From an uncultured Gemmatimonadota bacterium (GTDB lineage: Bacteria > JAAXHH01): 64,000 nucleotides of DNA. This document shows, one piece after another, positions 1,064 to 52,155 of this stretch (positions are counted from its first letter, which is position 1; each line of letters opens with the position of its first letter). The position numbers were made by a program, and so were the translations under genes. The stretch lies in contig OX638340.1 of assembly GCA_951812955.1 (NCBI GenBank), forward strand, positions 896,001 through 960,000, given 5' to 3'. The notes under the pieces are model-generated. The model had not been told where the DNA came from and did not search any database. It worked only from the letters and a program-made list of their open reading frames with translations.

Positions 1064-1085
1064 AGTCTGGTTCCGATTGGGGACA

Positions 1086-2111: not shown

Positions 2112-2144
2112 GGCGCCTCCTGGGTGCGAAATGGCGTATTTTGT

Positions 2145-2825: not shown

Positions 2826-2904
2826 CTGCCCTCCTCATACACGGCGACCTCGTATACCACAGGCCATATACCCCGCGTAAGCTATGGTTTCGCGGGCTGT
2901 CGTG

Positions 2905-7138: not shown

Positions 7139-7166
7139 TCAAGCACTCAAGCGCAACGGCACTGCC

Positions 7167-8096: not shown

Positions 8097-8122
8097 GGTA
8101 AGCTCCCGCATCGGGTTACGTC

Positions 8123-10195: not shown

Positions 10196-10198
10196 CCC

Positions 10199-18086: not shown

Positions 18087-18434
18087 ATGCCCGTCAACGA
18101 GATGATCCATACCATGCTGGAGGAATTGCGGCAGATCGCCGACACGGAGGTTCACGTGGGCAAACCCCTACATATCGGGGATTCCTATGTGGTTCCGGTT
18201 TCCAGGCTGTCCCTGGGGTTCGGTGCCGGGGGGTTTGGCGGCGAGGCCGATCAGAAGAGGGGGGCGGGGGGCGGTGTATCGGTCGAACCGGTCGCGTTTC
18301 TGGTCATCCAACAGGATCGCGCGCAACTGCTGCATATGAATTCGCCCAGCAGTCCCATGGGCAAGCTGCTGGATATCATGCCGGACGTCATCGAGGAACT
18401 GAAGAAGTATACCAGAAAAGACGGCGATCAGTAG
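18087..18434 (+). CDS. YtfJ/GerW-family small protein
   Basis: 115 aa with the characteristic glycine-rich core (GFGAGGFGGE...GAGGGVSVEPVAFLVI). GGAG-type RBS upstream. Transcribed divergently from lexA. Confidence 0.55.
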   Translation: MPVNEMIHTMLEELRQIADTEVHVGKPLHIGDSYVVPVSRLSLGFGAGGFGGEADQKRGAGGGVSVEPVAFLVIQQDRAQLLHMNSPSSPMGKLLDIMPDVIEELKKYTRKDGDQ

Positions 18435-20422
18435 ACCAGAGGCGCTACGGTCTTCGAAATCAGCGCGACGGCTACCGTGGCCATGCCGACCAATCCCGTG
18501 CCACAGGCATATCCGGCCGCGAGCACGGGCGTGTACCGCATCCATCTTTGCCTGCCGAACTTCCTTTCCATGTAGAACCTGCCCAGCAGTGCGCCGAAAA
18601 ACTGGGGAATGAAGGCGTGGGGCACCGTTCCCACGCTGGCGATCATACCGAAAATAAGCATGACAGGTAGATTGAAGGCTGCCAGGACGGCGTAGGCCAA
18701 TACGCCGAAAGCTGCGCCGCCTATCATGTAGGGGATTTTCAGCGCTTCGATCAGGTAGCTGGACTCGAATCCCGACCCGGCCGTGCTGGAATACCACAGC
18801 GCCTGCATCGTGGCCTGCTGCTGCCAGAACTTCTGCGCGTAGGGATAGGCCTGAGACGGAATAGGCGCGAGCCCCCAGACGAAGTGCCAGAACAGGAGAC
18901 TGCAGACCAGCAAAACGGGGATCATGACCAGCTCGGCCTTCAGCACGCTCGTGAACCGTGTTCCGGTGAGCTCGACTTCTCTAAAGGCCTGGGCCTGCCC
19001 CCCGTAGTTGAAAATCGGAATGGGCGCGAACCAGATGTCCACCCCCTTGTAGCCGCTGAGGATAAACGTGGCTTCCTTAATGAGGGGGAACTGCAGGTCG
19101 GCGCCCGTGATCGCGCGCAGGCGGGCGCTCGCGTACGAACTGATTGGCGTGTAAACGAACCCGTAGAACACGAAAAAGAGGATGGGGAACCCGGGCACCA
19201 GGCGCCAGCTCAGTACGACGTACCCAACTGTCAGAAGCAGAAAAGCGCCTAGAATCAGGGAGAAGGGAAAATCCCCCCTGCCGGTCGGCGTGGCGTTCCC
19301 GCTTGCAGATCCGCCCTTCGACTCTTCGCGCCCTTTTCCGCTCTTCCTTTTCCTGAGCCCGGCCAAAATGCTCCACCCGCCGATCAGCGCGACGGCTAAG
19401 CCCGTGCCGATGCGTACGCTCATCCAGAAATCGATATCGTTGACCAGCGTGGTCTGGATGGCGTCCATGCCCGGCGACCACGTACGCAGTATATTCAGAT
19501 CGTAGAGCAGCGGGTTGAGGACCACGGTAAGCAAAGCCCCGATGGCGGAACCGACCACGATCCAGAATGGCAGGACAAACCCCGTCAGCACTGGTCCCAG
19601 TCCCAGCTCGACCGCCATGGCCGCGGCCGGCAGAATGTTCTCGGTATTGCGCGTCAGGTCTGCAAAGGGAATGGGAATCAGTGTGATCGGTTCGGCCAGC
19701 AGCGCGCCCGTGACTGCCGGTATGCCGATATAGAACGCCCCGAATACGAGTCCCAGCATGGCCCCGATGCTGAATGCGCGCCAGCGCCATGATTCCTGTC
19801 CCGCCGAACTCTCCGCCAGGGCCGTGGCGCCTTCCGCCTGGATAGGAGCCAGGGGAAAGGGAAGGCGTTCCACGTCGGCCGTAACGCGGAATAATCCGTA
19901 ACCCAGCGTAAAGGCGCTCGCCCGGTTGAAGATGTGGAGCACGGCGACGAGCAGTATCGGCACGAGCCATTCCCCGTGCAGCAGCGTGCGGAGCACGATG
20001 GCTTCGGAGTCTCCACCGGGAGAGATCCACGAGGGAATCTGTTCGTCGATGCCGAAAGCCCGGGCTCCGGGGGACTGGACGAAGTACTGGTACCAGATCA
20101 GCTGGGCAAAGGGGCCCCCTGAAAGGGCCAGGCCCACGCCGGCGGTGAGGCTGGCCGCCACGTAGTACAGCATGTAAATTTCCTGGCGGCTGAGCTTGGT
20201 GAAGGACCGGCGCGCGACCTCGATAAACAGGATGATCGTGGTCCACTCCGCCGCGGGCCCCAGGCTCTGTCCGGCGATCAGGTTCAGGTAGATCGAACCG
20301 GGGATCATGAACAGCCCGAGAAAGACGATCCCAATGACCGTCTTTACGTTGAATCCTTCCTCGTAGACCTGGGGATGGTCGGAAAAGGCGGAGGTTGGCA
20401 GGTCGTCCTTAACTAGGGTCAT
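18428..20422 (-). CDS. polytopic membrane transporter, probably OPT (oligopeptide transporter) superfamily
   Basis: 664 aa and highly hydrophobic with about 15 or more predicted TM segments. The N-terminal region resembles OPT-family architecture. The call is by resemblance only. Confidence 0.45.
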   Translation of the reverse strand: MTLVKDDLPTSAFSDHPQVYEEGFNVKTVIGIVFLGLFMIPGSIYLNLIAGQSLGPAAEWTTIILFIEVARRSFTKLSRQEIYMLYYVAASLTAGVGLALSGGPFAQLIWYQYFVQSPGARAFGIDEQIPSWISPGGDSEAIVLRTLLHGEWLVPILLVAVLHIFNRASAFTLGYGLFRVTADVERLPFPLAPIQAEGATALAESSAGQESWRWRAFSIGAMLGLVFGAFYIGIPAVTGALLAEPITLIPIPFADLTRNTENILPAAAMAVELGLGPVLTGFVLPFWIVVGSAIGALLTVVLNPLLYDLNILRTWSPGMDAIQTTLVNDIDFWMSVRIGTGLAVALIGGWSILAGLRKRKSGKGREESKGGSASGNATPTGRGDFPFSLILGAFLLLTVGYVVLSWRLVPGFPILFFVFYGFVYTPISSYASARLRAITGADLQFPLIKEATFILSGYKGVDIWFAPIPIFNYGGQAQAFREVELTGTRFTSVLKAELVMIPVLLVCSLLFWHFVWGLAPIPSQAYPYAQKFWQQQATMQALWYSSTAGSGFESSYLIEALKIPYMIGGAAFGVLAYAVLAAFNLPVMLIFGMIASVGTVPHAFIPQFFGALLGRFYMERKFGRQRWMRYTPVLAAGYACGTGLVGMATVAVALISKTVAPLVY

Positions 20423-21275: not shown

Positions 21276-22379
21276 ATGTCAGCGTTCAGAGCGGGTATCA
21301 TCGGATGCGGCAACATCAGTAGTGTGTACTTCGAGGCGGGGCGTAAGTTCGAGGCTTTCGACGTGGTCGCATGTGCCGACATGGTCCCGGAACGGTCGCG
21401 GGCCAGGGCCGCCGAATTCGAGGGCGTGGAAGCCCGCACGGCCGAGGCCCTGCTAAACGATCCCGCCATAGAGATCGTCATCAACCTTACCATACCCGCC
21501 GCACATGCCGGAATCGCCCGGGCTGCTTTGGAGCACGGAAAATCGGTTTATACAGAAAAACCCATGGCGATCCGGAAAGAGGATGGGCGGGCCTTGCTCG
21601 ATCTCGCACGGAGATCGGGAAAACTGGTGGGCGGAGCGCCGGACACCTTCATGGGGGCCGGCATTCAGACCTGCCGAAAGCTCATCGACGACGGTTGGAT
21701 CGGCGAACCGGTGGCCGCCACGGCCTTTATGCTGAGTCCGGGACACGAGAGGTGGCATCCCGACCCCGGTTTCTTCTACAAGCCCGGCGCCGGTCCCATG
21801 CTGGACATGGGTCCGTACTACGTCACGGCGCTGGTCAATCTGCTGGGACCGGTCGCCCGGCTTACGGGCGCCACACGCATCACCCGTTCCGAGCGCACGA
21901 TAACGAGCGAACCTTTGTACGGAGAGAAAATAGAGGTCGAAGTGCCCACGCACCTGGCGGGCGTGATCGAATTCGAAAGCGGACCCATCGGGACGATCGT
22001 GACCAGTTTCGACGTGTGGCACCATGAACTGCCCCGCATCGAGATATACGGTACGGAGGGATCCCTGAGCGTACCCGATCCCAATTCGTTCGGCGGACCC
22101 GTGAAACTGCGCCGCGCCGGAGCCGAAACCTGGACGGAAATGCCCCTGAGCCACGGTTACGAGGAACAAAGCCGCGGGTTGGGCGTGGCGGACATGGTCT
22201 ATGCCCTGCGCTCGGGACGCCCGCACCGGGCCAGCGGCGAACTGACCTTTCACGTGCTTGACGTCATGCTGTCCATCGAGGAATCATCGGAGTCGGGACG
22301 GCATATTAACCTGGAAAGCACCTGTACCAGGCCGGCGCCCCTTCCGCTAGAACTGGCGCCTTACACCCTGGACCCATGA
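21276..22379 (+). CDS. Gfo/Idh/MocA-family NAD(P)-dependent oxidoreductase
   Basis: Start [15 protein letters not shown]... (Rossmann GxGxxG) at the ATG at 21276 with GGAG 12 nt upstream. The ORF-track start at 21099 is over-extended. Confidence 0.8.
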
Positions 22380-22410
22380 AGGAACACGGAAGCGGACCGG
22401 AAACGTAACC

Positions 22411-23319
22411 ATGCCCGATCATCCCGTAAGAAACCTGACCGATCTCCTGCCACGACTCGAACGGCTGATGGACCGCATCGAATCGCTCCTCTCCGCTTAT
22501 ACCGGAGGGTCGGGCAGCGAGTCCGGCGACGTCTATGCCGATTCGGTCGCATTCCAATGGCGGAAAAAGGGCGGAAAGGGATTCCTCGAACCGATCGTAC
22601 ACCCCGACCTGGCGGACCTGGGCGATCTCTTCGGCCTCGACCGCGAGATCGGGATCCTTGTCCGGAATACCCGCCAGTTCGTCCGGGGAATGCCCGCGAA
22701 CAACACGCTGATCTGGGGAGAACGCGGAACCGGCAAGTCCTCGGTGGTAAAGGGACTGCTGGCCCGTTTCGCCGGCGAGGGACTGCGCATGATCGAAGTC
22801 CGCAAGCAGGATCTGACGGATCTGCCCGAGATCGTTGAGATCCTGTGGGACCGCCCCGAGCGTTTCGTCCTGTTCTGCGACGACCTGTCCTTTTTGGATG
22901 ACGAATCCGTCTACCTCGAGCTCAAAGCGCTCCTCGAAGGCAGTCTTTCCGCCCGTCCCGACAACGTGCTCGTCTACGCCACGTCCAACCGCAGACACCT
23001 GATGTCGGAGAAGTTCGCCGACAACACGCCGCGATTCAGTCTGGACGACGACGAAATCCATCCACAGGAGACCGTGGAGGAGAAGGTTTCGTTGAGCGAC
23101 CGTTTCGGCCTCTCCATCGGATTCTATCGGATCACCCAGGACACCTATTTCGAAATCGTTCGCCATCTCGTCGATCAACGCGGAATCCATATCGACGGGG
23201 ACCTGCTGCGGCGGGAGTCCCTCCGGTGGGTGCAGCGCGCCAGCGGCCGTTCGGGCAGGGTCGCGCGGCAGTTCGTGGACGATCTGGAGGGGCGGCTCAA
23301 ACTGGGCGAATTGCCGTAG
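22411..23319 (+). CDS. DUF815-family AAA-like ATP-binding protein
   Basis: 302 aa with Walker A (GERGTGKSS) and Walker B (FVLFCDDLSF). Confidence 0.6.
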   Translation: MPDHPVRNLTDLLPRLERLMDRIESLLSAYTGGSGSESGDVYADSVAFQWRKKGGKGFLEPIVHPDLADLGDLFGLDREIGILVRNTRQFVRGMPANNTLIWGERGTGKSSVVKGLLARFAGEGLRMIEVRKQDLTDLPEIVEILWDRPERFVLFCDDLSFLDDESVYLELKALLEGSLSARPDNVLVYATSNRRHLMSEKFADNTPRFSLDDDEIHPQETVEEKVSLSDRFGLSIGFYRITQDTYFEIVRHLVDQRGIHIDGDLLRRESLRWVQRASGRSGRVARQFVDDLEGRLKLGELP

Positions 23320-23364
23320 ATTCCGGTGCGCCTCAGCAATTCGGGAAGTGGTTTTCTTTCCCAC

Positions 23365-23393
23365 TTGACACCGTATTTGACACAGCCTAATTA
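23365..23393 (+). promoter_or_regulatory. putative sigma70-type promoter for the molybdenum hydroxylase operon (-35 TTGACA 23365-23370, 17-bp spacer, -10 TAATTA)
   Basis: CACTTGACACC with a second TTGACA 12 bp downstream. AT-rich 180-bp intergenic region. Confidence 0.3.
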
Positions 23394-23411
23394 TGTAGAT
23401 CGTATTTTTGT

Positions 23412-23438
23412 ATATGCGCGGATTGAACTCGCGCATAT
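23412..23438. promoter_or_regulatory. perfect 9-bp inverted repeat ATATGCGCG-N9-CGCGCATAT; candidate operator or hairpin between promoter and first gene
   Basis: Arms at 23412-23420 and 23430-23438 are exact reverse complements. Lies about 65 bp upstream of the FAD-subunit start. Confidence 0.3.
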
Positions 23439-23503: not shown

Positions 23504-24376
23504 TTGCACGCATTCGACTATGCCACGCCGGAAAGCGTGGCCGATGCGGTGGTAATGCTCAGCGATCACGGGGAAAACGCCTGTGTGCTCGCGGGCGGAA
23601 CGGACCTGATCGTTCAGCTTCGGGAGAACCGGCGGCGTACCGACCTAGTGGTGGACGTCAAGAAAATCGCCGAACTGAACGCGTTGTCCTACAACGTCGC
23701 GACCGGTCTCACGATCGGAGCGGCCGTGCCCTGTTACCGGATCTACGGAGACGCGGAAATCGCAGCGGCCTATCCGGGACTCATGGACGCGGCGAAACTG
23801 GTAGGAGGCACGGGGATCCAGGGCAGGGCCAGCCTGGGTGGGAACCTGTGCAACGCATCCCCGGCGGGCGATACGATTCCCCCCATGATTGTCCTGGGCG
23901 GCGAGGCGGAAATCGCCGGTCCCGCCGGAACCCGGAACGTGGCGGTGGAAGACTTCTGTACGGCGCCCGGCCGCACCGTGCTGGCGGACGGCGAGTTCCT
24001 GGTGTCGCTCCGTTTCCCCGCGCCCGCGCCGAATTCCGGTGCGTTCTACCGGAGGTTCATCCCCCGCAACGAAATGGATATCGCCGTGGTGGGCGTCGGC
24101 GCGTCGGTGGTTCTCAGTGGCGACGGTTCTTCCTTCGTCTCCGCACGCATCGCCATAGGCGCCGTGGCCCCGACGCCGTTATTTGTAAGTGAAGCCGGAG
24201 CGGCCCTGGCCGGACAGCCCGTGTCCGACGAGTCGATCCAACGGGCTGCCGATATAGCCCGCGACGCGGCCCGGCCCATCAGCGACATGCGGGGTACCGC
24301 GGAATACCGAAAACATCTGACCAGCGTATTGACGCGCCGGGTTCTGCAGGGCGCGGTACAACGAGCCAAGGAGTAG
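23504..24376 (+). CDS. molybdenum hydroxylase FAD-binding (medium) subunit (CoxM/XdhB-like)
   Basis: 290 aa with the FAD-binding motif AGGTDLIVQL and a CO-dehydrogenase-flavoprotein C-terminal-domain-like region. Confidence 0.8.
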   Translation: MHAFDYATPESVADAVVMLSDHGENACVLAGGTDLIVQLRENRRRTDLVVDVKKIAELNALSYNVATGLTIGAAVPCYRIYGDAEIAAAYPGLMDAAKLVGGTGIQGRASLGGNLCNASPAGDTIPPMIVLGGEAEIAGPAGTRNVAVEDFCTAPGRTVLADGEFLVSLRFPAPAPNSGAFYRRFIPRNEMDIAVVGVGASVVLSGDGSSFVSARIAIGAVAPTPLFVSEAGAALAGQPVSDESIQRAADIARDAARPISDMRGTAEYRKHLTSVLTRRVLQGAVQRAKE

Positions 24377-24382
24377 CCGTCG

Positions 24383-24853
24383 ATGTCGAAAAAAGTACAC
24401 GTACAGACGAACATAAACGGAGAATCCGTCGATTTTCTTTGTGAACCGCGCAACAGCCTGCTCGAAGTACTGCGCGACGAGCTGGATCTCACCGGCGCGA
24501 AGGAAGGGTGCAACAACGGCAATTGCGGCGCCTGCAACGTGATCATGGACGGCAGGCTGGTCAATTCCTGCTGCGTGCTGGGCGTAGAAGCCGACGGTTG
24601 CGAGTTAACGACCATCGAAGGGGTCGGGTCGGCCGCTAACCTGCATCCGTTGCAGCAGAAGTTCCTGGAACACGCGGCGCTGCAGTGCGGCATATGCACG
24701 CCCGGGTTCATCGTTTCCGCCAAGGCCCTGCTGGACCGTAATCCGAACCCCTCCGAGGACGAGGTTCGCTACTGGCTGGCCGGCAATCTCTGCCGCTGCA
24801 CCGGATACGACAAAATCGTCCGCGCGGTCCTGGACGCCAGGAACGGCGCCTGA
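24383..24853 (+). CDS. molybdenum hydroxylase (2Fe-2S)-binding small subunit (CoxS/XdhC-like)
   Basis: 156 aa with two [2Fe-2S] motifs (CNNGNCGACNV and CGICTPGF...CRCTGY). Confidence 0.85.
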   Translation: MSKKVHVQTNINGESVDFLCEPRNSLLEVLRDELDLTGAKEGCNNGNCGACNVIMDGRLVNSCCVLGVEADGCELTTIEGVGSAANLHPLQQKFLEHAALQCGICTPGFIVSAKALLDRNPNPSEDEVRYWLAGNLCRCTGYDKIVRAVLDARNGA

Positions 24854-24946
24854 CCCGTCGCCTGACCCGTAACGATCGGCGCGCGTCTGCTCAGGGAACG
24901 CGGCCGGAAATGGCCAAATTGGAATGACTAAACGGAGGTAAGAAAC

Positions 24947-27223
24947 GTGTCACAAAACGGACATAAAGTCATCGGCACCCGTCCAATACGCCATGACGGG
25001 GTGGATAAGGTTACCGGCCGGGCGATCTACGGCGCCGATATACAGCTGACGGGCCTGCTTTATGGCGCAATAAAGCGCAGTCCCCACCCGCATGCGCGGA
25101 TCAAGCATATCGACACGAGCCGGGCGGAGGCCCATCCTGGGGTCCGGGCGGTAGTCACAGCCCACGACCTTCCTCAGATCGCCGACAAGATCGCCGATCT
25201 GGGCGAAGCGATCGTCAACCTGCGCGATTCCAGCAATAACGTGCTGGCCTATGGCAAGGTGCTTTACAAGGGCCATGCCGTCGCCGGCGTCGCGGCAATC
25301 AACCTGCACGTCGCCCAGGAAGCGGTGGAACTGATCGACGTGGAATACGAACTGCTGCCCCACGTGACGGGCGTACTGGAGGCCATGGAAGACGGCGCCC
25401 CGATCTTGCACGAGGACATGAAGACCACGTCCATGGGCGAGGAAACGGACAAGGTCAGCAATATCGCCAACCACTTCCAGCACAAGATGGGCGAGCCGGA
25501 CGACGGTTTTGCCGAAGCCGACGTGGTGATCGAGCGCGAATTCACGACGCAGACCGTCCACCAGGGCTATATCGAGTCTCATAACGCCACGGCGCTCTGG
25601 AACGAAGAAGGCCAGCTCACCGTCTGGACGAGTACGCAGGGCGCTTTTGCCGTACGGGATCAACTGGCCGAGATCCTCCAGATGCCCGTTTCGAAGGTCA
25701 AGATCGTACCCCTGGAGATCGGCGGCGGATTCGGAGGCAAGATTTCAGTTTACCTGGACCCGGTCGCCGCGCTGCTTTCGAAGAAGACGGGGCATCCCGT
25801 AAAGATGACGATGACCCGCGACGAGGTATTCGAAGCAACGGGCCCGACGCCGGGTTCCTACCTGAAGGTCAAGATGGGCGCCACCAGCGACGGACGGCTT
25901 ACGGCCGCCACGGCGTACATGGCCTACGAGGCCGGTGCCTATCCCGGCTCACCGGTCGGCGCGGGCGCGGGCTGCATATTCACGCCCTACGACATACCCA
26001 ATGTGCAGATCGACGGGTACGACGTGTGCGTAAACAAGCCCAAGACGAACGCCTACCGCGCGCCCGGGGCCACCAATGCGGCCTATGCGTCCGAAACGGT
26101 CGTGGACGAAATATGCGAGAAAATCGGCATGGACCCACTCGAGTTCCGGGTGAAGAACGGCGCGAAGGAAGGTGGTCGCCGGGCCGACGGTCCCGTGCAT
26201 CCGCGCATCGGCTGCATCGAGACCACCCAAGCCGCGCTCAACAGCGAACACTACCAATCCACGCTCGAGAAGACGGCGAACGGCAAGGTACGCGGACGGG
26301 GCGTAGCATCCGGTTACTGGTTCAACTTCAACGGCGGAAGGTCGGCCATCTCGGTAAGCATCAATCCCGACGGCACCATCAACATGCTCGAGGGTTCTAC
26401 CGATATCGGCGGGTCACGGGCATCCATCGCCATGCAGCTGGCCGAGACCATCGGTCTTGAAGCAACCGACATCAAGCCCTACGTGGTGGATACGGACTCG
26501 ATCGGCTACACCGACGTGACCGGCGGCAGCCGCACCACCTTCGGAACGGGCTACGCCGCCCACGCCACGGGCCTGGCCCTCATACGCGAAATCAAGGAGA
26601 GGGCGTCGAAGCTCTGGGACGTGCCTGCCGACGCCATCGACTTCGCCGACGGGGTCTTCTCCTACAAGGACGACGCGGAAAAGCGGGGCACCTTCAAGGA
26701 GGTTGCCAGCCAGGCCGGCGACGCCGGCGGTCCCGTGGTCGCCCAGGTCAGCACGAATCCCGACGGCAGCGGCGGCGGCGCCTTCGCCACCCACGTCGTC
26801 GACGTGGAAGTCGACAGGGAAACGGGCAAGGTGGACATACTCCGCTATACCGCGGTCCAGGACGCCGGAACGGCCATTCACCCAAGCTACGTGGAAGGCC
26901 AGATGCAGGGCGGCGTGGTGCAAGGCATCGGCTGGGGTCTCAACGAGGAGTACATCTACAACGACGAAGGCTCCATGACCAACGCCAGTTTCCTGGATTA
27001 CCGTATGCCCACGACGCTCGACCTGCCCATGATCGAGACGATCATCGTGGAAGTGCCCAACGAGTCCCATCCCTACGGCGTGCGGGGCGTCGGTGAAGTG
27101 CCGATCGTACCGCCTCCGGCCGCTCTCTCCAACGCGATCTACGACGCGACGGGCGTAAGGCTGCGTGACCTGCCCATGTCCCCGCCCCGGGTACAGAAGG
27201 CCGTAGCGGAGAACGGCGGGTAA
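24947..27223 (+). CDS. molybdopterin-binding large subunit of xanthine dehydrogenase/aldehyde oxidase-family molybdenum hydroxylase (substrate unknown)
   Basis: 758 aa, GTG start with GGAGG RBS. GGGFGGK motif and C-terminal GVGE active-site glutamate region. The active-site loop reads AYRAPGA, which matches neither form I CODH (AYRCSFR) nor form II (AYRGAGR). Confidence 0.85.
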   Translation: MSQNGHKVIGTRPIRHDGVDKVTGRAIYGADIQLTGLLYGAIKRSPHPHARIKHIDTSRAEAHPGVRAVVTAHDLPQIADKIADLGEAIVNLRDSSNNVLAYGKVLYKGHAVAGVAAINLHVAQEAVELIDVEYELLPHVTGVLEAMEDGAPILHEDMKTTSMGEETDKVSNIANHFQHKMGEPDDGFAEADVVIEREFTTQTVHQGYIESHNATALWNEEGQLTVWTSTQGAFAVRDQLAEILQMPVSKVKIVPLEIGGGFGGKISVYLDPVAALLSKKTGHPVKMTMTRDEVFEATGPTPGSYLKVKMGATSDGRLTAATAYMAYEAGAYPGSPVGAGAGCIFTPYDIPNVQIDGYDVCVNKPKTNAYRAPGATNAAYASETVVDEICEKIGMDPLEFRVKNGAKEGGRRADGPVHPRIGCIETTQAALNSEHYQSTLEKTANGKVRGRGVASGYWFNFNGGRSAISVSINPDGTINMLEGSTDIGGSRASIAMQLAETIGLEATDIKPYVVDTDSIGYTDVTGGSRTTFGTGYAAHATGLALIREIKERASKLWDVPADAIDFADGVFSYKDDAEKRGTFKEVASQAGDAGGPVVAQVSTNPDGSGGGAFATHVVDVEVDRETGKVDILRYTAVQDAGTAIHPSYVEGQMQGGVVQGIGWGLNEEYIYNDEGSMTNASFLDYRMPTTLDLPMIETIIVEVPNESHPYGVRGVGEVPIVPPPAALSNAIYDATGVRLRDLPMSPPRVQKAVAENGG

Positions 27224-31942: not shown

Positions 31943-33388
31943 ATGGCCCACAGAGATTTACAATCGTTCGTCGACCTGCTCCGGGACGAAGGCGAGTTAA
32001 AGGAAATCACCGTCGAAATCGATCCCGACCTGGAGATCAGCGCCATCGCGGACCGCGTGGTCAAACGGAACGGTCCCGCGTTGTTGTTCACCAACGTCAA
32101 GGGCCATGCTGGTATTCCCGTGCTGATCAATACCTTCGGGTCGAAGCGCCGCATGGAACTGGCGCTGGGCGCGGAAGACCTCGACGACATCGCGGCCGAG
32201 ATCGCCGAACTGATCAATCCCCGGATGCCGGCCTCGCTCGCGGGAAAGCTGCAGATGCTGCCCCGGCTTGCCCGGTTGAAGGACACCCAGACGCGGACCG
32301 TCCGCAACGGCCCCTGCCAGGAGGTAGTGGAGACGGACACAGCGTCCTTCGAAACCCTTCCGGTCATCAAATGCTGGCCCGGCGACGGCGGGAAGTACAT
32401 CACCTTCCCCCAGGTCATTACGAAGCATCCCGAAAAGGGGACGCGCAACGTGGGTATGTACCGGCTGCAGGTCTTCGACGACAAGACGCTGGGACTGCAC
32501 TGGCAGCGTCACAAGGGTGGGGCCCACCACTACCACGTCGCGGAACAGGCCGGTAAGCGGCTGGAAGTCGCCGTCGTCCTCGGCCCCGATCCGGAGACCA
32601 TGTACGCCGCGACGGCGCCCCTGCCCGACGAGATCGACGAATACATGCTGGCCGGGTTTCTCCGCAGGCGGCCGGTGGAGCTAGTAAAGTGCCGGACGGT
32701 GGACCTGGAGGTGCCGGCCAACGCCCAGATCGTGCTGGAAGGCTACGCCGAGCCCCGCGAACGGCGTGTCGAGGGTCCCTTCGGCGATCACCAGGGTTAT
32801 TACTCGCTGACCGACGAATACCCGGTATTTCACCTTACGGCCATCACGCGAAGAAAAGAACCCATCTATCCCACGATCATCGTCGGGCCGCCTCCGCAGG
32901 AAGACGGTTGGCTCGGGAAGGCCACCGAACGCATTTTCCTGCCGCTCCTCAAGACCACGCTACCGGAGATCGTGGACATCGACCTGCCCATCGAAGGCAT
33001 TTTTCACAACCTGGCCATCGTATCTATCGACAAACGCTATCCGGGCCACGCCCGGAAGGTGATGCATGCCCTCTGGGGCCTGGGCCAGATGATGTTCACC
33101 AAGGTGATTATCGTTGTGGACAAGGACGTGGACGTGCATAATATGAGGGAGGTCGCCTGGCGGGTCGGGGTATCCATCGATCCGAAACGGGATCTGTTGA
33201 TCAGCGAGGGACCTTGTGACGTCCTGGATTTCGCCGCGCAGACCGCGGATGTAAGTGGCAAGCTGGGCATCGACGCCACCGAGAAATGGCCGGACGAAGG
33301 GTTCGACCGGGGATGGCCGGAAATCCTGCGCATGCCCGACGAGGTCGACCGGCGCATCGATGCGCTATGGCCGAAGCTGGATCTTTGA
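31943..33388 (+). CDS. UbiD-family decarboxylase (futalosine-pathway-associated menaquinone biosynthesis decarboxylase-like)
   Basis: 481 aa with UbiD-family N-terminus and core. Lies immediately upstream of the mqn radical-SAM genes. Confidence 0.8.
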   Translation: MAHRDLQSFVDLLRDEGELKEITVEIDPDLEISAIADRVVKRNGPALLFTNVKGHAGIPVLINTFGSKRRMELALGAEDLDDIAAEIAELINPRMPASLAGKLQMLPRLARLKDTQTRTVRNGPCQEVVETDTASFETLPVIKCWPGDGGKYITFPQVITKHPEKGTRNVGMYRLQVFDDKTLGLHWQRHKGGAHHYHVAEQAGKRLEVAVVLGPDPETMYAATAPLPDEIDEYMLAGFLRRRPVELVKCRTVDLEVPANAQIVLEGYAEPRERRVEGPFGDHQGYYSLTDEYPVFHLTAITRRKEPIYPTIIVGPPPQEDGWLGKATERIFLPLLKTTLPEIVDIDLPIEGIFHNLAIVSIDKRYPGHARKVMHALWGLGQMMFTKVIIVVDKDVDVHNMREVAWRVGVSIDPKRDLLISEGPCDVLDFAAQTADVSGKLGIDATEKWPDEGFDRGWPEILRMPDEVDRRIDALWPKLDL

Positions 33389-33403
33389 TTCAGGGAGAAT
33401 CGG

Positions 33404-34570
33404 ATGTTTGAAGCACTGATCGCCGAAGCAGGCCTTGAGGACATACACGGGAAAGTCGTGGCGGGCGAGCGGCTTTCTGCCGATGACGGGAGAAGGCTGT
33501 ACCGGCACGGTAACCTGCCGGCCGTCGGCTACCTGGCTAATCTCGTTCGCGAGCGCATGCACGGCGAACGGGTCTACTTCGTGCGTAACCAGCACCTGAA
33601 CTACACCAACATCTGCAACAAAAGCTGCCTCTTCTGTTCCTTTTACGCCCTGCCTAAAGATCCGGAAGGATACGTGCTTTCGCCCGACGACATCAGGACG
33701 CGGATGGAGACCTACTCGGACATGCCGATCTCCGAGATCCACATGGTCGGCGGAGTGAACCCCAGGTTGCCCTACGCCTATTACCTGGATATCGTCCGGG
33801 CGATCAAGGAAATGCGGCCTGGCGTGTCGCTCAAGGCCTTCACCATGATCGAGCTTGAGCAGATCCGTAGAATCGCCAAAAAACCCATGGACGAGACCCT
33901 GGCGGACCTGAAAGAGGCCGGGGTGGACGCGCTGCCTGGAGGCGGCGCCGAGGTTTTCAGCGAAAGGGTGCACGAGGAATTGTTCCAGGCCAAATCGGAC
34001 TCCGATAAATGGCTGGAAACCGCGCGCGTAGCACACGAGGTGGGTCTGCCCTCCAACGCGACCATGCTGTACGGCCACGTGGAGCAGACGGAGGAAAAGG
34101 TCTATCACCTCATGAAACTTCGGGAATTGCAGGATGAAACGAACGGGTTCCTGGCCTTCATTCCCCTTTCGTGGCACCCGGAGCGCACGGCTATCGAACA
34201 CCTGCCCGGACCGACGGGTCAGATGGACCTTCGGGAGATCGCGGTCGCACGGCTCATGCTGGACAACGTGCCCCATATCAAGTCGTTCTGGATCATGAAC
34301 ACCCCCGCGGTAACTCAGGTGGGACTGTGGTACGGCGCGGACGACATGGACGGCAGCGTCCTGGAGTACGAAATCACCCGCGATCCCGTTACCGACCGTG
34401 TGCAGGCCCTGACCCATCCCCAGATGCTCGACATGATCAGCGAGTCGGGCCGGCAGCCCGTCGAGCGCGACGCGCTCTACAACGTCGTGGACCGGCCGGA
34501 ATCGATTCGGCCGGCCTATCTGGATCCGGTCGGCGGTGCCACGGCCGACGCCCTCGCGAGCGCAGGATGA
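33404..34570 (+). CDS. radical SAM enzyme of the MqnE/MqnC family (aminofutalosine synthase or cyclic dehypoxanthine-futalosine synthase), paralog 1
   Basis: 388 aa with CNKSCLFC radical-SAM cluster motif and the MqnC/MqnE-type N-terminus (GERLSADDGRRLY). Which paralog it is cannot be decided by eye. Confidence 0.75.
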   Translation: MFEALIAEAGLEDIHGKVVAGERLSADDGRRLYRHGNLPAVGYLANLVRERMHGERVYFVRNQHLNYTNICNKSCLFCSFYALPKDPEGYVLSPDDIRTRMETYSDMPISEIHMVGGVNPRLPYAYYLDIVRAIKEMRPGVSLKAFTMIELEQIRRIAKKPMDETLADLKEAGVDALPGGGAEVFSERVHEELFQAKSDSDKWLETARVAHEVGLPSNATMLYGHVEQTEEKVYHLMKLRELQDETNGFLAFIPLSWHPERTAIEHLPGPTGQMDLREIAVARLMLDNVPHIKSFWIMNTPAVTQVGLWYGADDMDGSVLEYEITRDPVTDRVQALTHPQMLDMISESGRQPVERDALYNVVDRPESIRPAYLDPVGGATADALASAG

Positions 34571-34600
34571 CTCCATGCATCACGAGCGCAGGATGACTTC

Positions 34601-35725
34601 ATGATTGCAGATATCGCAGAAAAGGTCCTGGCCGGCGCCCGCCTGAGCGCCAACGACGGACGCCGTCTGTTCCGGCACCCGAACGTTACAGAACTGGGCA
34701 TGTTGGCCGACCACGTGCGTCGACGGAAGCACCCCGAACCGGTAGTGACATACAATATCGGCCGTAACATCAATTACACCAACGTGTGCTGGGTGCGGTG
34801 CAAGTTTTGCGCTTTCTACCGCCCGCCGGGCGATGGCGAAGGATACACGCTCCCAGACGAGGAGATTTTCGCCAAGGTCGAGGAACTGATCGACGTCGGG
34901 GGTGACGCGGGGGAGTCCTGCGAGATCCTCATGCAGGGCGGACTCAATCCCAGGCTGAAGATCGACTATTATGAAACCCTCTTCTCGGAAATCACCCGTC
35001 GCTATCCCGCGGCCTATCTCCATTCGCTTTCCGTAGCGGAAATCGTTTACCTCGCCCATATCTCCCGGATCTCGGTCGAAGAAGCGCTGGTCCGTCTGCG
35101 CGCGGCTGGATTGAAGTCCCTCCCGGGCGCCGGCGCCGAAATCCTAGACACCGAAGTCCGCGACGCCATCGCCTTCCGTAAGGAAACGGTTCAGGAGTGG
35201 TTGGACGTACACAGCCTGACCCATCGGCTGGGCATGAAATCGACGGCGACCATGATGTTCGGATCGGTGGAAACCGTCGAGCACCGATTGAATCACCTCC
35301 TCCGTGTTCGCGAAGTACAGGACGAGTCGCTCGCACGCCACGACGGTTACTTCACGGCATTTATCGCCTGGAGCTTCCAACCCGAAGGCACCGAACTGCC
35401 CGATACGCGAAAGGCTACGGGATACGATTACCTGCGGACAGTAGCCATTGCCAGGCTTATGTTGGACAACATAGAGAACATCCAGGCTTCCTACGTAACG
35501 CAGGGACCGAAGATCGCGCAGATCGCTCTCGGTTACGGCGTGAACGATTTCGGCAGCACCATGATGGAAGAAAACGTCATCAGCGCCGGCGGCACGAGTT
35601 TCGTGATGCCCACCCCGGAGATCGAGCGGCTGATCGGCGACGCGGGGTTTATTCCGCGCCGGCGCAACACGCGGTATGAATTCGTAGAAAACGGCACTCC
35701 CGCAAATCATGAATCCGCAGTATAG
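34601..35725 (+). CDS. radical SAM enzyme of the MqnE/MqnC family, paralog 2
   Basis: 374 aa with CWVRCKFC motif and N-terminus GARLSANDGRRLF, paralogous to the upstream gene. Confidence 0.75.
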   Translation: MIADIAEKVLAGARLSANDGRRLFRHPNVTELGMLADHVRRRKHPEPVVTYNIGRNINYTNVCWVRCKFCAFYRPPGDGEGYTLPDEEIFAKVEELIDVGGDAGESCEILMQGGLNPRLKIDYYETLFSEITRRYPAAYLHSLSVAEIVYLAHISRISVEEALVRLRAAGLKSLPGAGAEILDTEVRDAIAFRKETVQEWLDVHSLTHRLGMKSTATMMFGSVETVEHRLNHLLRVREVQDESLARHDGYFTAFIAWSFQPEGTELPDTRKATGYDYLRTVAIARLMLDNIENIQASYVTQGPKIAQIALGYGVNDFGSTMMEENVISAGGTSFVMPTPEIERLIGDAGFIPRRRNTRYEFVENGTPANHESAV

Positions 35726-35859
35726 GCGAACGTACGCCCGGGCCCAACCCGCTCGTCCCGCCCAACCTGGCGGATTCGCCAATACCGCGACCACCTGGAT
35801 GAACAGGCTGTAATCACCGCCGGAAGGCGTTGACGGAGCAACCGGCGGACGATTGAAGC

Positions 35860-36675
35860 ATGGTCTCTAAAACCCGTCTTAACGCCGTGAGTTTTCTGAA
35901 TACCAGGCCCTTGACCTATGGCCTGGAACGCGGAGGCCGGGATCACGGATTCGAAATCCTCTATGATATCCCCTCCGTATGCGCCAGGCAGGTGAGGACG
36001 GGCGAAGCCTCGGCGGGCGTCATTCCCAGCATCGAATACGCACGCAGTGCGGTACCTTACTCAATCGTTCCCGAGGTATCCATCGCATCCAACGGTCCAG
36101 TCGCCAGCATTCTACTGTTCCACAGGGTGCCGGTCCGGGGCATCCGAAAGGTCGCGATGGATGTGAGTTCCCGGACAGCCGCGGCCCTGGTCCATATCGT
36201 CCTGTATGAGCGGTACGGCCTGGAAATCGAATCGGTCGACCACCCGCCGGACGTATCTGCGATGCTTGAACGGGCGGACGCGGCCCTGGTCATCGGCGAT
36301 CCTGCCCTGGAGAATACGAACCGGCCCGAACCCCGTCTGGACCTGGGGCAGGCATGGCGGGAACTGACCGGGTTGCCTTTTGTGTACGCCTTCTGGGCGG
36401 GGAAGGATGGTGGTCTCACGCCCGGCGAGGTCGAACTGCTGATCGCGTCGAAGAACCAGGGGATGTCCGCCTTCGACGAGATCGCCGAAGTTCACGCGAG
36501 GGACCGCTCACATCCGACTTCGTACTACGCGTCGTACCTCAGCGATAACCTGGTTTACGACCTGGGAGAAGAGGAACAACGAGGACTCATGGAGTTTTAC
36601 GGGATGGCCCATGTTCGCGGCCTGATCCCGTACGTACCGGAATTGCGTTTTTATCCGCGTCAAGGAAGGAGATGA
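35860..36675 (+). CDS. MqnA/MqnD-family protein (PF02621, futalosine-pathway menaquinone biosynthesis)
   Basis: 271 aa with the N-terminal SFLNTRPL motif typical of MqnA-like periplasmic-binding-fold enzymes. Confidence 0.7.
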   Translation: MVSKTRLNAVSFLNTRPLTYGLERGGRDHGFEILYDIPSVCARQVRTGEASAGVIPSIEYARSAVPYSIVPEVSIASNGPVASILLFHRVPVRGIRKVAMDVSSRTAAALVHIVLYERYGLEIESVDHPPDVSAMLERADAALVIGDPALENTNRPEPRLDLGQAWRELTGLPFVYAFWAGKDGGLTPGEVELLIASKNQGMSAFDEIAEVHARDRSHPTSYYASYLSDNLVYDLGEEEQRGLMEFYGMAHVRGLIPYVPELRFYPRQGRR

Positions 36676-37637
36676 TCATGGCATCGGCAACAACGGTCGG
36701 CATCGGCACGGGAAGCAACCGCCGCGAGAACGTGCGCGTGGCGGTGGAACGCTCCGCCCCGCAATTGGCCTCCCTCATGGGGGAAGAGGTCATGCTCAAG
36801 CCTAATTTCCTCTCCGGCACCAACCCGGTGGTATGCACCCACCCGGACGCGGTCCGCGGCGTGCTGGACGTCATCATGACCCTGCCGGAGAAACCGCGCC
36901 GGGTACTGATCGCAGAGGGCGGCAATGAATCCGTGCCGGGAGAGTGCTTCCGTCACATGGGATACACCGACATCCCGGACGAATACGACATCCCCATCGA
37001 ACTGGTGGACCTGAACCAGGAGACCAGGTGGCGAAATACCCGGGTGTACATGGTCGACGGCACCTGGACTACGGTCAGGATGCCGCGTACCGTGCTGGAC
37101 TGTCCCTGCGTTATCTCGGTCGCCGTGGCCAAGACCCATGACGGCGCCATGGTTACCCTGGCGCTGAAGAATCTCATCATGGGTACGATATTGAAGAAAG
37201 ACCGAATCAAGGTCCATGGCTATACGACCCACCACGACCGGCGCCATCCTCCGGAAGCCCGGGCGCTCAGCAGGAACCTGATCCGCCTCGCCCGCCACCT
37301 CTACCCCCACTACAGCGTGGTGGACGGTACGGTCGGCATACAGGGTAACGGTCCAGGGGGAACTGACACCGTGCCGCTGGGCCTGGCGGCGGCCGGGGAG
37401 GACACCATCGCCGTGGACGCCGTCATTTCAAAGGCCATGGGATTCGAACCATTGGAGGTGGGAACGGTATTCTACGGGGACGCAATCGGCCTGGGCGTGG
37501 GCGATCTGGAACGCATCTGCGTGAACGGCGGACGGCTGGATGAACTTGCCCTGTCCTTCAAGGGGCATGAATCCATCGATCTGCAGCGTCAGTGGGCTTT
37601 CGAAGGCGCGTGGGAATCGGCGGCGGTCGGCGGTTGA
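36672..37637 (+). CDS. DUF362 domain protein
   Basis: 321 aa. The ATG at 36672 overlaps the mqnA/D stop by 4 bp (ATGA), suggesting translational coupling. The last 7 codons plus stop are copied into the downstream 22-bp repeat array. Confidence 0.6.
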   Translation: MIMASATTVGIGTGSNRRENVRVAVERSAPQLASLMGEEVMLKPNFLSGTNPVVCTHPDAVRGVLDVIMTLPEKPRRVLIAEGGNESVPGECFRHMGYTDIPDEYDIPIELVDLNQETRWRNTRVYMVDGTWTTVRMPRTVLDCPCVISVAVAKTHDGAMVTLALKNLIMGTILKKDRIKVHGYTTHHDRRHPPEARALSRNLIRLARHLYPHYSVVDGTVGIQGNGPGGTDTVPLGLAAAGEDTIAVDAVISKAMGFEPLEVGTVFYGDAIGLGVGDLERICVNGGRLDELALSFKGHESIDLQRQWAFEGAWESAAVGG

Positions 37638-49168: not shown

Positions 49169-49202
49169 TTGTATTGCACCGTGTCTGTATCGTCTGTATG
49201 AT
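49169..49202 (+). promoter_or_regulatory. putative promoter region of hemE (-10 TATGAT at 49197-49202, weak -35 TTGTAT/TTGCAC) with a TCTGTAT x2 direct repeat
   Basis: TGTCTGTATCGTCTGTATGATAGAT. RBS AAAGGA lies 5 nt upstream of the ATG at 49232. Confidence 0.25.
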
Positions 49203-49231
49203 AGATCTGGTCATCATGAGAAAGGATGGAC

Positions 49232-50737
49232 ATGGACTATAATGGATTGCAGGTCGCGACGCTCGATGAGTCTCTGAGCGACGCCATTGCCGCGCGCGGT
49301 GGCAAACCTGTGGTATCCAGGGCGGACGACACGGAGAGCCTGGATTCCTTTCTTGAAAACCTGGCACGGGACGACATCGCCGTACTGTTACTGACAGAAC
49401 CTGAACATGTCCGTGCGTTGTTCGGTCGCGCGTCCGCAACAGGGCGCGTCGAGCCCCTGCTGGATGCAGTCAGGCAAATTGCCGTGGGTTCGGCGGGACC
49501 CGCGTGCACGAAAATCTGGAGAAACCACCATCTTTCCGTCGATTTCGAACCTGACGGGACCGGCGGAGAAGCACTCGTGTCGGGCATGGCGCGCCTCGCC
49601 GCATACCTGGTCAACAAGAAACGCACCGCCGTGGACAGTGGGGTGGACACCTCGCACTGGCAACGCATCGACATGCGGTGGCATTTCGAAAGCGATCCCT
49701 ACGGAACCCGGGGCGAGTCTGCCTTCCTCCGGGCGTGCCGCCGGGAACCGACGGAATATACGCCCGTATGGCTGCTGCGTCAGGCGGGCCGATACCAGCG
49801 GGCCTATCGGGAACTGAAATCCGACCTGGATTTCCTGGACATGTGCAAGACCCCGGAACTCACCGCCGAGATCACGTTGATGGCCGTAGAACGCCTGGGG
49901 GTGGACGCCGCCATCCTATTCGCAGACATCCTCCCGCTGCTGCAACCGATGGGCTTCCACCTGGAATACGTCAAGGGACAGGGACCCGTCATTCGCAATC
50001 CGATTCGGTCGGACCGGGCCGTGGATCAACTCGAGGAGGAAGGACCGGAATCCCAGCATTTCGTTTACGAGGCCATCCGCATGGCATTGCCGGCGCTTCC
50101 ACCCCATATCCCGCTCATCGGTTTTTCCGGCGCTCCATTCACCCTGGCCGCCTATGCCATCGAGGGGCAGAGTTCGCGGGACTTCAGGCGCGTCAAGACC
50201 TTCATGTATTCCGAACCGAGGGCCTGGCATGCCTTGATGGCGAAACTGGCGAGAACCGTCACGGCCTACCTCAACGAACAGATCGAGGCGGGCGTTCATG
50301 CCGTACAGTTATTCGACAGCTGGGCAGGCTGCCTTTCGCCCGATGATTACAGGACATTCGTCCTTCCCCATACCGGGTACGTCTTCTCCAATCTGCGCCC
50401 CGGCGTTCCTTCCATACATTTCGGGGTCTGCACCGGTTCTCTGCTCGATTTGATGCGGGAGGCGGGTGGTGAGGTCATCGGGCTGGATTGGCGCGTGGAC
50501 CTGTCCGAAGCATGGCAGGACCTTGAACACGAGGTGGCGGTCCAGGGAAACCTGGATCCCATGGTCCTCTTTTCGTCCCCCGATGTAATCCGCCAGCATG
50601 CGGCGACCGTCCTGCACAAGGCCGGGGGACGTCCCGGACATGTCTTCAACCTGGGTCACGGCATACTGCCCGGCACACCGGAAGACCACGTCATCGCGCT
50701 CGTGGACGCCGTGCATGAATTGGGAATCGCTCGATGA
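49232..50737 (+). CDS. hemE: uroporphyrinogen decarboxylase HemE with an N-terminal ~150-aa HemD (uroporphyrinogen-III synthase, HEM4)-like half-domain in the same reading frame
   Basis: C-terminal ~350 aa is canonical HemE (FLRACRREPTEYTPVWLLRQAGRYQRAYR...). The N-terminal 150 aa resembles one HEM4 domain. There is no stop between the two parts, and an RBS and promoter precede the ATG at 49232. An alternative reading is a separate HemE start at M150 (ATG 49673). Confidence 0.75.
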   Translation: MDYNGLQVATLDESLSDAIAARGGKPVVSRADDTESLDSFLENLARDDIAVLLLTEPEHVRALFGRASATGRVEPLLDAVRQIAVGSAGPACTKIWRNHHLSVDFEPDGTGGEALVSGMARLAAYLVNKKRTAVDSGVDTSHWQRIDMRWHFESDPYGTRGESAFLRACRREPTEYTPVWLLRQAGRYQRAYRELKSDLDFLDMCKTPELTAEITLMAVERLGVDAAILFADILPLLQPMGFHLEYVKGQGPVIRNPIRSDRAVDQLEEEGPESQHFVYEAIRMALPALPPHIPLIGFSGAPFTLAAYAIEGQSSRDFRRVKTFMYSEPRAWHALMAKLARTVTAYLNEQIEAGVHAVQLFDSWAGCLSPDDYRTFVLPHTGYVFSNLRPGVPSIHFGVCTGSLLDLMREAGGEVIGLDWRVDLSEAWQDLEHEVAVQGNLDPMVLFSSPDVIRQHAATVLHKAGGRPGHVFNLGHGILPGTPEDHVIALVDAVHELGIAR

Positions 50738-52155
50738 AAGTCGTCGTGGTCGGCGGGGGCATAGCCGGGTTGAGCGCCGCGCACCGGCTGGCGGAAACGA
50801 AACGTCACGACCTGGAAGTGACGCTGCTGGAGCGGACGGACCGATTCGGTGGCACGATACGCACGATCGAGCTCGGCGGATGTCTGGTCGAACTGGGTCC
50901 GGATTCCTTTCTTTCGTCCAAGCCCTGGTTGACGCAACTGGCTGAGCGATTGGGCGTGGCTGATCGGATCATCGCCACTGCAACCACCCATCGCAGGTCC
51001 CACGTCGTCCATCGCGGCAAGCTGCACCCGTTGCCCGACGGGTTCCTGATGATGGCGCCTACCCGCCTCTGGCCCATGGTGACCACTTCGCTTTTTTCGT
51101 GGACGGGCAAGATCCGGTGCGCTTTGGACCTGGTACTGCCACGTTCGCGTGCAACCGGAGACGAGAGTCTGGGCGCGTTCGTCCGCCGGCGTTTCGGCGG
51201 AGAGGTGCTCGAGCGCGTCGTACAACCGCTCATCGGGGGCATCTATGCGGGAGACCCCGATAGGCTCAGCCTGAAGGCCACCATCCCGCGGTTCCTCGAG
51301 ATGGAAACCCGATACCGCAGTGTCATACGGGCCATGGTCGCACAGCGGCGCGCGGCCGCCCGGCGCGGAGGCGGTCCCACGGCCGGCAGCGGCGCGCGCT
51401 ACGGTGAACTGGTCACCTTCGACCATGGCATGAAAACCATCGTGCAGGCGTTGATGGAAAGCCTTCCGGAAGAAACGATGCGCACGCATTCCGACGTCGT
51501 GAGCCTGAGCCGCGAAGGGGACCTCTGGCGTCTGGCATGCGGCGACGGACAGCATATCGATGCGGATGCGGTCATTCTTGCCCTGCCTGCCCGAAAGGCC
51601 GCGGATCTGCTTCGCGGCATCGAAACGGGCCTTCATGATGAACTGTCGGCCATCCCCCACGCGTCGACGGCCGTCCTGAACCTCGTGTACCGGCGTTCGG
51701 ATGTGCCCCATCCCATGGACTGCTTCGGGTTTGTGGTTCCCGCGGTAGAGGAACGGGATATCATCGCCTGCACCTTCAGCAGCGTTAAGTTCCCGAACCG
51801 GGCGCCGGAGGACCACGTGCTGTTGCGCGCTTTCATCGGCGGCGCCCGGCAGCGGCACATGCTCGGTTTCGATGACGGGGAGCTGAACCGGATCGTCCGG
51901 GCGGAGCTGAAAGACCTCATGGGCATCGAAGCCGCTCCTCTTCACACCGCGCTTGCCCGGTACCCGGACGCCATGCCCCAGTACCTCGTCGGCCATAGCC
52001 GGCGCGTTGAGCGGATCGAATCACTGCTCGATCGGTATCCCGGACTTGCGTTGGCAGGCAATGCCTATGGCGGCGTGGGCCTGCCCGATTGCGTGCGTTC
52101 GGGTGAACAGGCAGCGGAGCGGGTACTGGAGATGGAGGAGAACGGCTCCCGTTAG
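50734..52155 (+). CDS. hemY: protoporphyrinogen/coproporphyrinogen oxidase (HemY/CgoX-family FAD amine-oxidase fold)
   Basis: 473 aa with N-terminal FAD motif VVVVGGGIAGLSAA. ATGA overlap with the hemE stop. The last 8 codons plus stop are tandemly copied downstream. Confidence 0.8.
   Translation: MKVVVVGGGIAGLSAAHRLAETKRHDLEVTLLERTDRFGGTIRTIELGGCLVELGPDSFLSSKPWLTQLAERLGVADRIIATATTHRRSHVVHRGKLHPLPDGFLMMAPTRLWPMVTTSLFSWTGKIRCALDLVLPRSRATGDESLGAFVRRRFGGEVLERVVQPLIGGIYAGDPDRLSLKATIPRFLEMETRYRSVIRAMVAQRRAAARRGGGPTAGSGARYGELVTFDHGMKTIVQALMESLPEETMRTHSDVVSLSREGDLWRLACGDGQHIDADAVILALPARKAADLLRGIETGLHDELSAIPHASTAVLNLVYRRSDVPHPMDCFGFVVPAVEERDIIACTFSSVKFPNRAPEDHVLLRAFIGGARQRHMLGFDDGELNRIVRAELKDLMGIEAAPLHTALARYPDAMPQYLVGHSRRVERIESLLDRYPGLALAGNAYGGVGLPDCVRSGEQAAERVLEMEENGSR

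Follow-up and report, generated by a model that had tools for sequence, protein, structure and literature searches.

A HemE protein carrying a single HemD-derived domain, encoded in DNA from an uncultured bacterium

The stretch of DNA analyzed here, hereafter the window, comprises 64,000 nucleotides (nt) of contig OX638340.1 (positions 896,001 to 960,000, forward strand) from an uncultured bacterium, and it contains a gene in which uroporphyrinogen decarboxylase (HemE, or UroD) is preceded in the same polypeptide by part of uroporphyrinogen III synthase (HemD, or UroS). Segment profiles and BLASTP alignments show that a single internal deletion of ~140 residues joined the beta1-alpha1 segment of HemD to the C-terminal part of that protein. 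Most likely, the domain formed in this way is non-catalytic and persists as a scaffold for HemE or a docking appendage on it, and UroS activity would come from a gene elsewhere. HemD-HemE fusions are widespread in uncultured phyla, and one lineage kept only half of the HemD part. Because HemD is poorly conserved and often reported missing from genomes, a sub-threshold match to the Pfam family HEM4 (PF02602) could be misread as the organism's UroS or as nothing; recognizing a remnant of HemD domain 1 avoids both misreadings.

An internally deleted HemD in front of HemE

The gene is a single open reading frame (ORF) on the + strand (49226-50737) that encodes 503 amino acids (aa) when counted from its first ATG. 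We adopted a protein of 501 aa, which begins at the ATG at 49232 and ends with the stop at 50737, because the ATG at 49226 overlaps a Shine-Dalgarno-like sequence and is missing in several orthologs. The ATG at 49232 is the conserved start, the proteins of the orthologs beginning MDYNGL at the matching position, and residues are numbered from it throughout. The coordinates of all features are collected in Table 1.

Residues 163-501 are a canonical, intact HemE. A search of the translation with PF01208, as had been proposed when the gene was first noted, gave a match far above the gathering threshold (GA) of that family (412.6 bits, E 1.6e-123; GA 23.9), and TIGR01464 matched with 400.7 bits (cutoff 302.95) over positions 2-338 of its 338. 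The AlphaFold2 (AF2) model of the whole chain (predicted local distance difference test, pLDDT, 92.7; predicted template modeling score, pTM, 0.91) has the TIM-barrel-like UROD fold by comparison in Foldseek with 24 solved UROD chains, the target-normalized template modeling (TM) scores being 0.91-0.93 at 37-44% identity. The RQAGRY motif (with R185 and R189), D234, Y310, and H478 are invariant in the alignment; by reference to human UROD, we take these to be the active-site residues, i.e., the RQAGRY arginines, the Asp of FADIL, the Tyr of AAYAIEG, and the His of LGHG. The catalytic motifs are common to the window protein and to stand-alone HemE proteins of ~350 aa, relative to which the window protein has an additional 162 residues at its N terminus. 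Among its close relatives are two such plain HemEs, P0039 and P0050 (69-71% identical).

A full-length database search returned ~25 clusters of proteins that share this architecture (500-512 aa, 54-98% identical, query coverage 99-100%, no stops), which we refer to as the short class, together with many proteins of ~650 aa that contain both PF02602 and PF01208, which we refer to as full fusions. When species-representative genomes were scanned, at least 19 metagenome-assembled genomes (MAGs) proved to have an intact short form. Most of them are labeled Candidatus Latescibacterota, several were obtained from metagenomes of sponges or corals, and complete chromosomes of ~3.9 Mb are also among them. 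The uninterrupted extension of about 150 aa described in the original prediction is therefore present over its whole length in orthologs, and the accompanying question of whether relatives share it is answered by these clusters and MAGs. The same prediction had likened the extension to a single HEM4/HemD domain. PF02602 does match residues 17-123, as anticipated, but with 24.5 bits the match lies below the GA of 27.5, and the NCBIfam HemD models gave no more than 17 bits on the N terminus of the window protein. HEM4 matched 10 of 14 orthologous N termini (best E 2.9e-8), and the homology to HemD was established by profile comparison despite the low Pfam score. A phmmer search of the N terminus against PDB sequences gave no match, and structure comparison was used as a result. 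A word-indexed protein search with the N-terminal 155 aa alone was also empty, which is attributed to the limit of the word index and not to absence, because the full-length query found 98%-identical proteins in the same database. Searches of this type can miss short, fast-evolving queries.

The extension is composed of two segments that are distant from each other in an intact HemD. Residues ~29-135 align to the HemD of the ~650-aa fusions after the motif VPVYxW/ALPED, and a profile of the fusion HemD matches the window protein only at its positions ~178-286 of 287. Initially, the extension was aligned as a contiguous second HemD repeat, and hhalign forces the same colinear path; this assignment was ruled out by segment profiles and BLASTP. 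A profile of the N terminus of the fusion HemD gave 11.2 bits on the window protein and up to 36.4 bits on basal members of the short class, whereas a profile of the start of repeat 2 gave at most 2.2 bits on short-class N termini. BLASTP of a basal short-class protein (P0022) against the nearest full fusion (P0024) yielded two colinear blocks, 1-35/1-35 and 44-503/183-642, the second at 69% identity. When the short-class profile was compared with stand-alone HemDs of ~280 aa, it matched from the protein N terminus (profile positions ~3-106, spanning the first repeat) and more strongly at the C-terminal ~100 residues.

In human UROS, Mathews et al. are said to have assigned, in 2001, residues 1-35 and 173-260 to domain 1 and residues 42-165 to domain 2. 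With these boundaries, the deletion would have removed domain 2 together with the two hinge strands, and domain 1 would remain in one piece. The AF2 model shows a closed, five-strand alpha/beta domain (strands 7-10, 25-28, 49-54, and 84-87, with a further single-residue strand or bridge near residue 105; helices 13-21, 34-45, 57-69, 73-80, 90-97, and 112-135), i.e., an individual domain with a predicted HemD-type fold, which precedes the UROD fold in the chain. UroS of known structure (Thermus thermophilus 3D8N and 1WCW, human 1JR2) has two domains and a hinge; the window protein has one domain, no hinge, and no hinge tyrosine. The structure prediction thus bore out the original expectation of one HemD-like domain within the HemE polypeptide, but the term half-domain does not hold in the sense of a contiguous half, as ~28 residues derive from the N terminus of HemD and ~105 from its C-terminal part.

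Full fusions, reductions, and losses

Full fusions share with the window protein the order of domains, the conserved stretch made up of the C-terminal HemD helix and the linker (KKRxA..GVDT..W.R.DM.W), and HemE, with an overall identity of 47-60%. They differ in that the window protein has ~140 fewer residues, which correspond to HemD domain 2 and the hinge strands 'APxMREVP' and 'VPVYxW'; its own subclade is also without the 'FESR' loop of the full fusions. One full fusion (P0104, Candidatus Methylomirabilis oxyfera) bears the NCBI name 'Uroporphyrinogen III synthase, uroporhyrinogen decarboxylase', and others occur in MAGs of Phycisphaerae, Binatia, and Abditibacteriales. A literature search within one searchable library found no paper describing a HemD-HemE fusion, which is known from database annotation only. 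The fusion as such, predicted at the outset to be unusual, is therefore widespread, already annotated, and not new; it is the form containing domain 1 only that appears to be undescribed.

A neighbor-joining (NJ) tree of the HemE part of 114 sequences, drawn without bootstrap support values, placed the short class as a monophyletic group, sister to the plain HemEs P0039 and P0050; these together were sister to the 648-aa fusion P0024, and all were nested among long fusions. The contig of P0050 has the same rsmI/hemE-hemY synteny as the window, and its plain 352-aa HemE lies 100 bp from rsmI. The remnant is entirely gone in that relative. A second pair of HemE-only proteins (P0108 and P0120) fell inside another clade of fusions in the same tree. 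Because the short class and the HemE-only proteins nest among fusions, the full fusion is judged to be ancestral, its HemD part having been reduced or lost repeatedly.

The loci L025 (2503-3561), L026 (8001-9065), and L027 (1332-2396) encode plain HemEs of ~353 aa and represent two independent lineages nested among fusions. The gene order is rsmI/hemE-hemY in one of the two HemE-only lineages, and in the other, hemE is part of a hemE-hemH-epimerase-hemY cluster.

The fused HemD belongs to a large family of stand-alone HemDs of ~285 aa, to which it is 52-66% identical, and the profile of the fusion HemD matches T. thermophilus UroS over its full length (E 1.9e-18). Members of the stand-alone family (P0290-P0408) are from Omnitrophica, Binatia, and Deltaproteobacteria MAGs, and their conservation across phyla is unusually high for a poorly conserved enzyme family.

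Reading frame, start site, and upstream signals

The ORF was intact at all 21 of the orthologous MAG loci, and a stop or frameshift was found in none of more than 40 orthologous sequences. Pairwise dN/dS by the method of Nei and Gojobori, using the window gene and 18 orthologs, was 0.21 for residues 1-115, 0.09 for residues 116-150, and 0.09 for HemE. Hence, the extension is translated in frame and constrained, because the ORFs are uninterrupted and dN/dS is well below 1; its constraint is about twice as relaxed as that of HemE. Within the short class, the extension has a constant length, although its N-terminal identity falls to ~30%, and conservation extends to T55, G86, and S87. Sampling among closer relatives inflates the degree of conservation seen in the short class. 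Conservation within the extension is highest in the fusion linker, VDSGVDTSHWQRIDMRWHFESDPYGTRGE, where all short-class proteins have G137, T140, W143, D147, M148, and W150.

These data also bear on the other possibility raised when the gene was first described, that HemE begins at the internal ATG at 49673 and is preceded by a separate or degenerate hemD remnant; the 147 codons upstream would then be a decaying, untranslated hemD pseudogene or a separate gene. Met148, which this ATG encodes, is conserved, and canonical HemEs begin ~15-20 residues before FLRAC, both of which would fit an internal start. However, Met148 sits in the linker motif DMxW, the long fusions, too, have methionine there more often than any other residue (42%), and the residues around it are invariant as protein. 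No Shine-Dalgarno-like sequence precedes 49673, whereas a conserved one, together with a promoter-like block, precedes 49232; the AF2 model treats the whole chain as one confident unit. Neither the intact frames nor the dN/dS values of the upstream codons would be expected of a pseudogene. We give an internal start almost no credence, and an intact frame, purifying selection, and an invariant linker effectively exclude a separate gene or pseudogene.

The -10 hexamer TATGAT and the ribosome-binding site that had been pointed out ahead of the upstream ATG are both conserved in orthologous loci. Across nine aligned orthologous loci, the block at 49174-49202 that contains this hexamer is the best-conserved intergenic stretch, and from its sequence it may function as a promoter. 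A scan for consensus promoters gave the block no score because its -35 is weak. The only site that the scan did pick sat inside the start of the coding sequence and was not used. At its other end, hemE shares the sequence ATGA (50734-50737) between its stop and the start of hemY, and the same 4-nt overlap is found in an ortholog (L001, 11509-11512). Conservation of the overlap suggests translational coupling of hemE to hemY, that is, of two consecutive enzymes of the heme pathway.

Possible functions of the remaining domain, and other genes in the window

UroS is a monomer in which two domains are connected by a two-stranded hinge; the active site lies between the domains, and HemD binds its tetrapyrrole in the cleft there. 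The product contacts both domains of known UroS, and these are not equivalent to each other. As domain 2 and the hinge are absent, this interdomain cleft cannot form within one chain of the window protein. The motifs 'VPVYxW' and 'QEYGxSN' are absent from the short class along with all of domain 2. The hinge tyrosine (Tyr168 of human UROS, Tyr155 of T. thermophilus UroS) has a conservation of 95% in the fusions, where it aligns to the Tyr of 'MPYRH' in 1WCW, and is deleted in all short-class proteins. Mutagenesis has pointed to just one residue with a part in UroS catalysis, a tyrosine (a 'possible active-site tyrosine'), and no residue is known to be essential (PMC7242693). The short class shows substitutions or variation in several motifs and residues whose conservation in the fusions is 0.9-1.0, namely FESR after strand 1, the Q of FTSxxQ, the GP of GSIGP, G100, and M112; conservation is kept in the linker and at core hydrophobic positions. 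By a general rule for alpha/beta folds, the degraded FESR, FTSxxQ, and GP loops would line the cleft. With the tetrapyrrole bound in a cleft between two domains, and with the hinge tyrosine and fusion-invariant motifs deleted or degraded, the remnant is most likely no longer a synthase.

A single HemD half has been engineered before (cU3Sd, PDB 6TH8; 'Reconstructing the Origins of the HemD-like fold', Toledo-Patino et al.), in experiments that undid the presumed duplication and segment swap by which a flavodoxin-like ancestor gave rise to the HemD-like fold (PMC8250049). That half is a laboratory construct, whereas the window domain is a natural deletion product, maintained by selection and fused to HemE, and the two have a sequence identity of only ~10-13%. 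By analogy, the window domain can be regarded as the natural counterpart of the construct, i.e., of the reversion of the HemD-like fold to a single flavodoxin-like domain, with the difference that selection has maintained the deletion product over long evolutionary time.

Could the single domain nevertheless be a working UroS? In such a scheme, the HemE homodimer would place its two domain 1 copies opposite each other, so that a symmetric two-domain cleft forms anew, from which the product would be handed directly to HemE. UroD is a homodimer, and some organisms that make heme have no annotated UroS (PMC13564367); engineered single HemD halves fold stably (6TH8; PMC8250049), the window domain is under purifying selection, and it retains T55, G86, and S87. 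In addition, no other HemD was found with the fusion HemD profile in the ORFs of the 64-kb window or within 10 kb on either side of the gene at 24 related loci, 22 of them of the short class; 30 further window ORFs searched with Pfam contained no heme gene besides hemY. An indirect search, in which the query was the HemD portion of the full fusion nearest to the short class, gave among its best 120 matches none whose longest contig equaled a Latescibacterota chromosome, and it favors neither view. Nevertheless, we consider a homodimeric UroS improbable: the hinge strands and tyrosine are deleted, three motifs that are invariant in full fusions (the FESR loop, the Q of FTSxxQ, and GP) are degraded, and the non-equivalence of known UroS domains, both touched by the product, counts against it too. 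The domain also evolves about twice as fast as HemE, and the syntenic relative P0050 has lost it completely. The broader proposal that these Latescibacterota are without any two-domain HemD, so that the HemE-fused single domain makes uroporphyrinogen III as a homodimer on the HemE dimer and channels it into the decarboxylase, is a longer shot still. Were the remnant catalytic, it would mean that the two-domain cleft of UroS can be rebuilt by dimerization.

The explanation that we favor is thus a non-catalytic remnant. A HemD-HemE fusion of ~650 aa underwent one internal deletion of ~140 residues, leaving a closed, flavodoxin-like domain 1, the linker, and HemE. The HemE part carries out catalysis; the invariant linker and the C-terminal helix probably pack on the HemE barrel, and uroporphyrinogen III made by a HemD from another locus may still be taken over with the aid of the domain. 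A number of points weigh against a mere remnant. It has persisted at constant length and under purifying selection through a divergence deep enough to reduce N-terminal identity to ~30%, which argues that it does something, and three of its residues (T55, G86, and S87) remain conserved. The stand-alone hemD elsewhere is assumed, none having been found in the window or in the 10-kb flanks of the 24 loci. Loss of the tyrosine alone is no proof of inactivity because no UroS residue is known to be essential (PMC7242693), and the predicted contacts of domain, linker, and HemE derive from the high pTM of the model only. A role gained since the deletion, in binding a ligand or in regulation (for instance, adjusting HemE in response to a tetrapyrrole or heme, or bringing HemC or a stand-alone HemD into a complex), is possible but unlikely. 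A selected function of some kind would agree with the persistence just described; however, no specific ligand motif was recognized, conservation in the short class is inflated by the sampling of closer relatives, and the domain was dispensable in the P0050 lineage.

Table 1. Features of the hemE locus and of a second gene group in the window.
Feature	Position	Strand	Basis or remark
Promoter-like block: TTGCAC, 17-nt spacer, TATGAT	49174-49179, 49197-49202	+	sequence reading
Shine-Dalgarno-like GAAAGGA	49220-49226	+	5 nt upstream of ATG 49232-49234
HemD N-terminus-derived strand-helix-strand (beta1-alpha1, structural domain 1), residues 1-28	49232-49315	+	segment profiles, BLASTP, AF2
HemD C-terminal part (rest of structural domain 1, long C-terminal helix 112-135), residues 29-135	49316-49636	+	fusion alignment
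Fusion linker, residues 136-162, including Met148 (ATG 49673-49675)	49637-49717	+	conservation, dN/dS
Uroporphyrinogen decarboxylase (HemE/UroD), residues 163-501 and stop	49718-50737	+	PF01208, TIGR01464, Foldseek
hemY, protoporphyrinogen oxidase family	50734-52155	+	TIGR00562, 347 bits (cutoff 97.85)
UbiD-family decarboxylase	31943-33388
MqnC-like radical SAM protein with CofH_C domain	34601-35725
VitK2_biosynth protein	35860-36675
DUF362 protein	36672-37637		after menaquinone cluster

Elsewhere in the window, four candidate ORFs of 375-664 aa (1077-3041, 18428-20422, 22306-23436, and 33365-34576) had no Pfam match at E <= 1e-5. The genes at 31943-36675 form a cluster linked to menaquinone synthesis by the futalosine route (Table 1). 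On the + strand at 6101-13624, a MoxR AAA+ ATPase, a DUF58 protein, a BatA/VWA protein, and a 1141-aa ORF without a Pfam match occur in a row, an arrangement that resembles an aerotolerance (Bat)-like operon. The stretch at 23504-27223 encodes the three subunits of a molybdopterin dehydrogenase of the CoxMSL or xanthine dehydrogenase type (FAD_binding_5/CO_deh_flav_C, [2Fe-2S] subunit, and MoCoBD large subunit).
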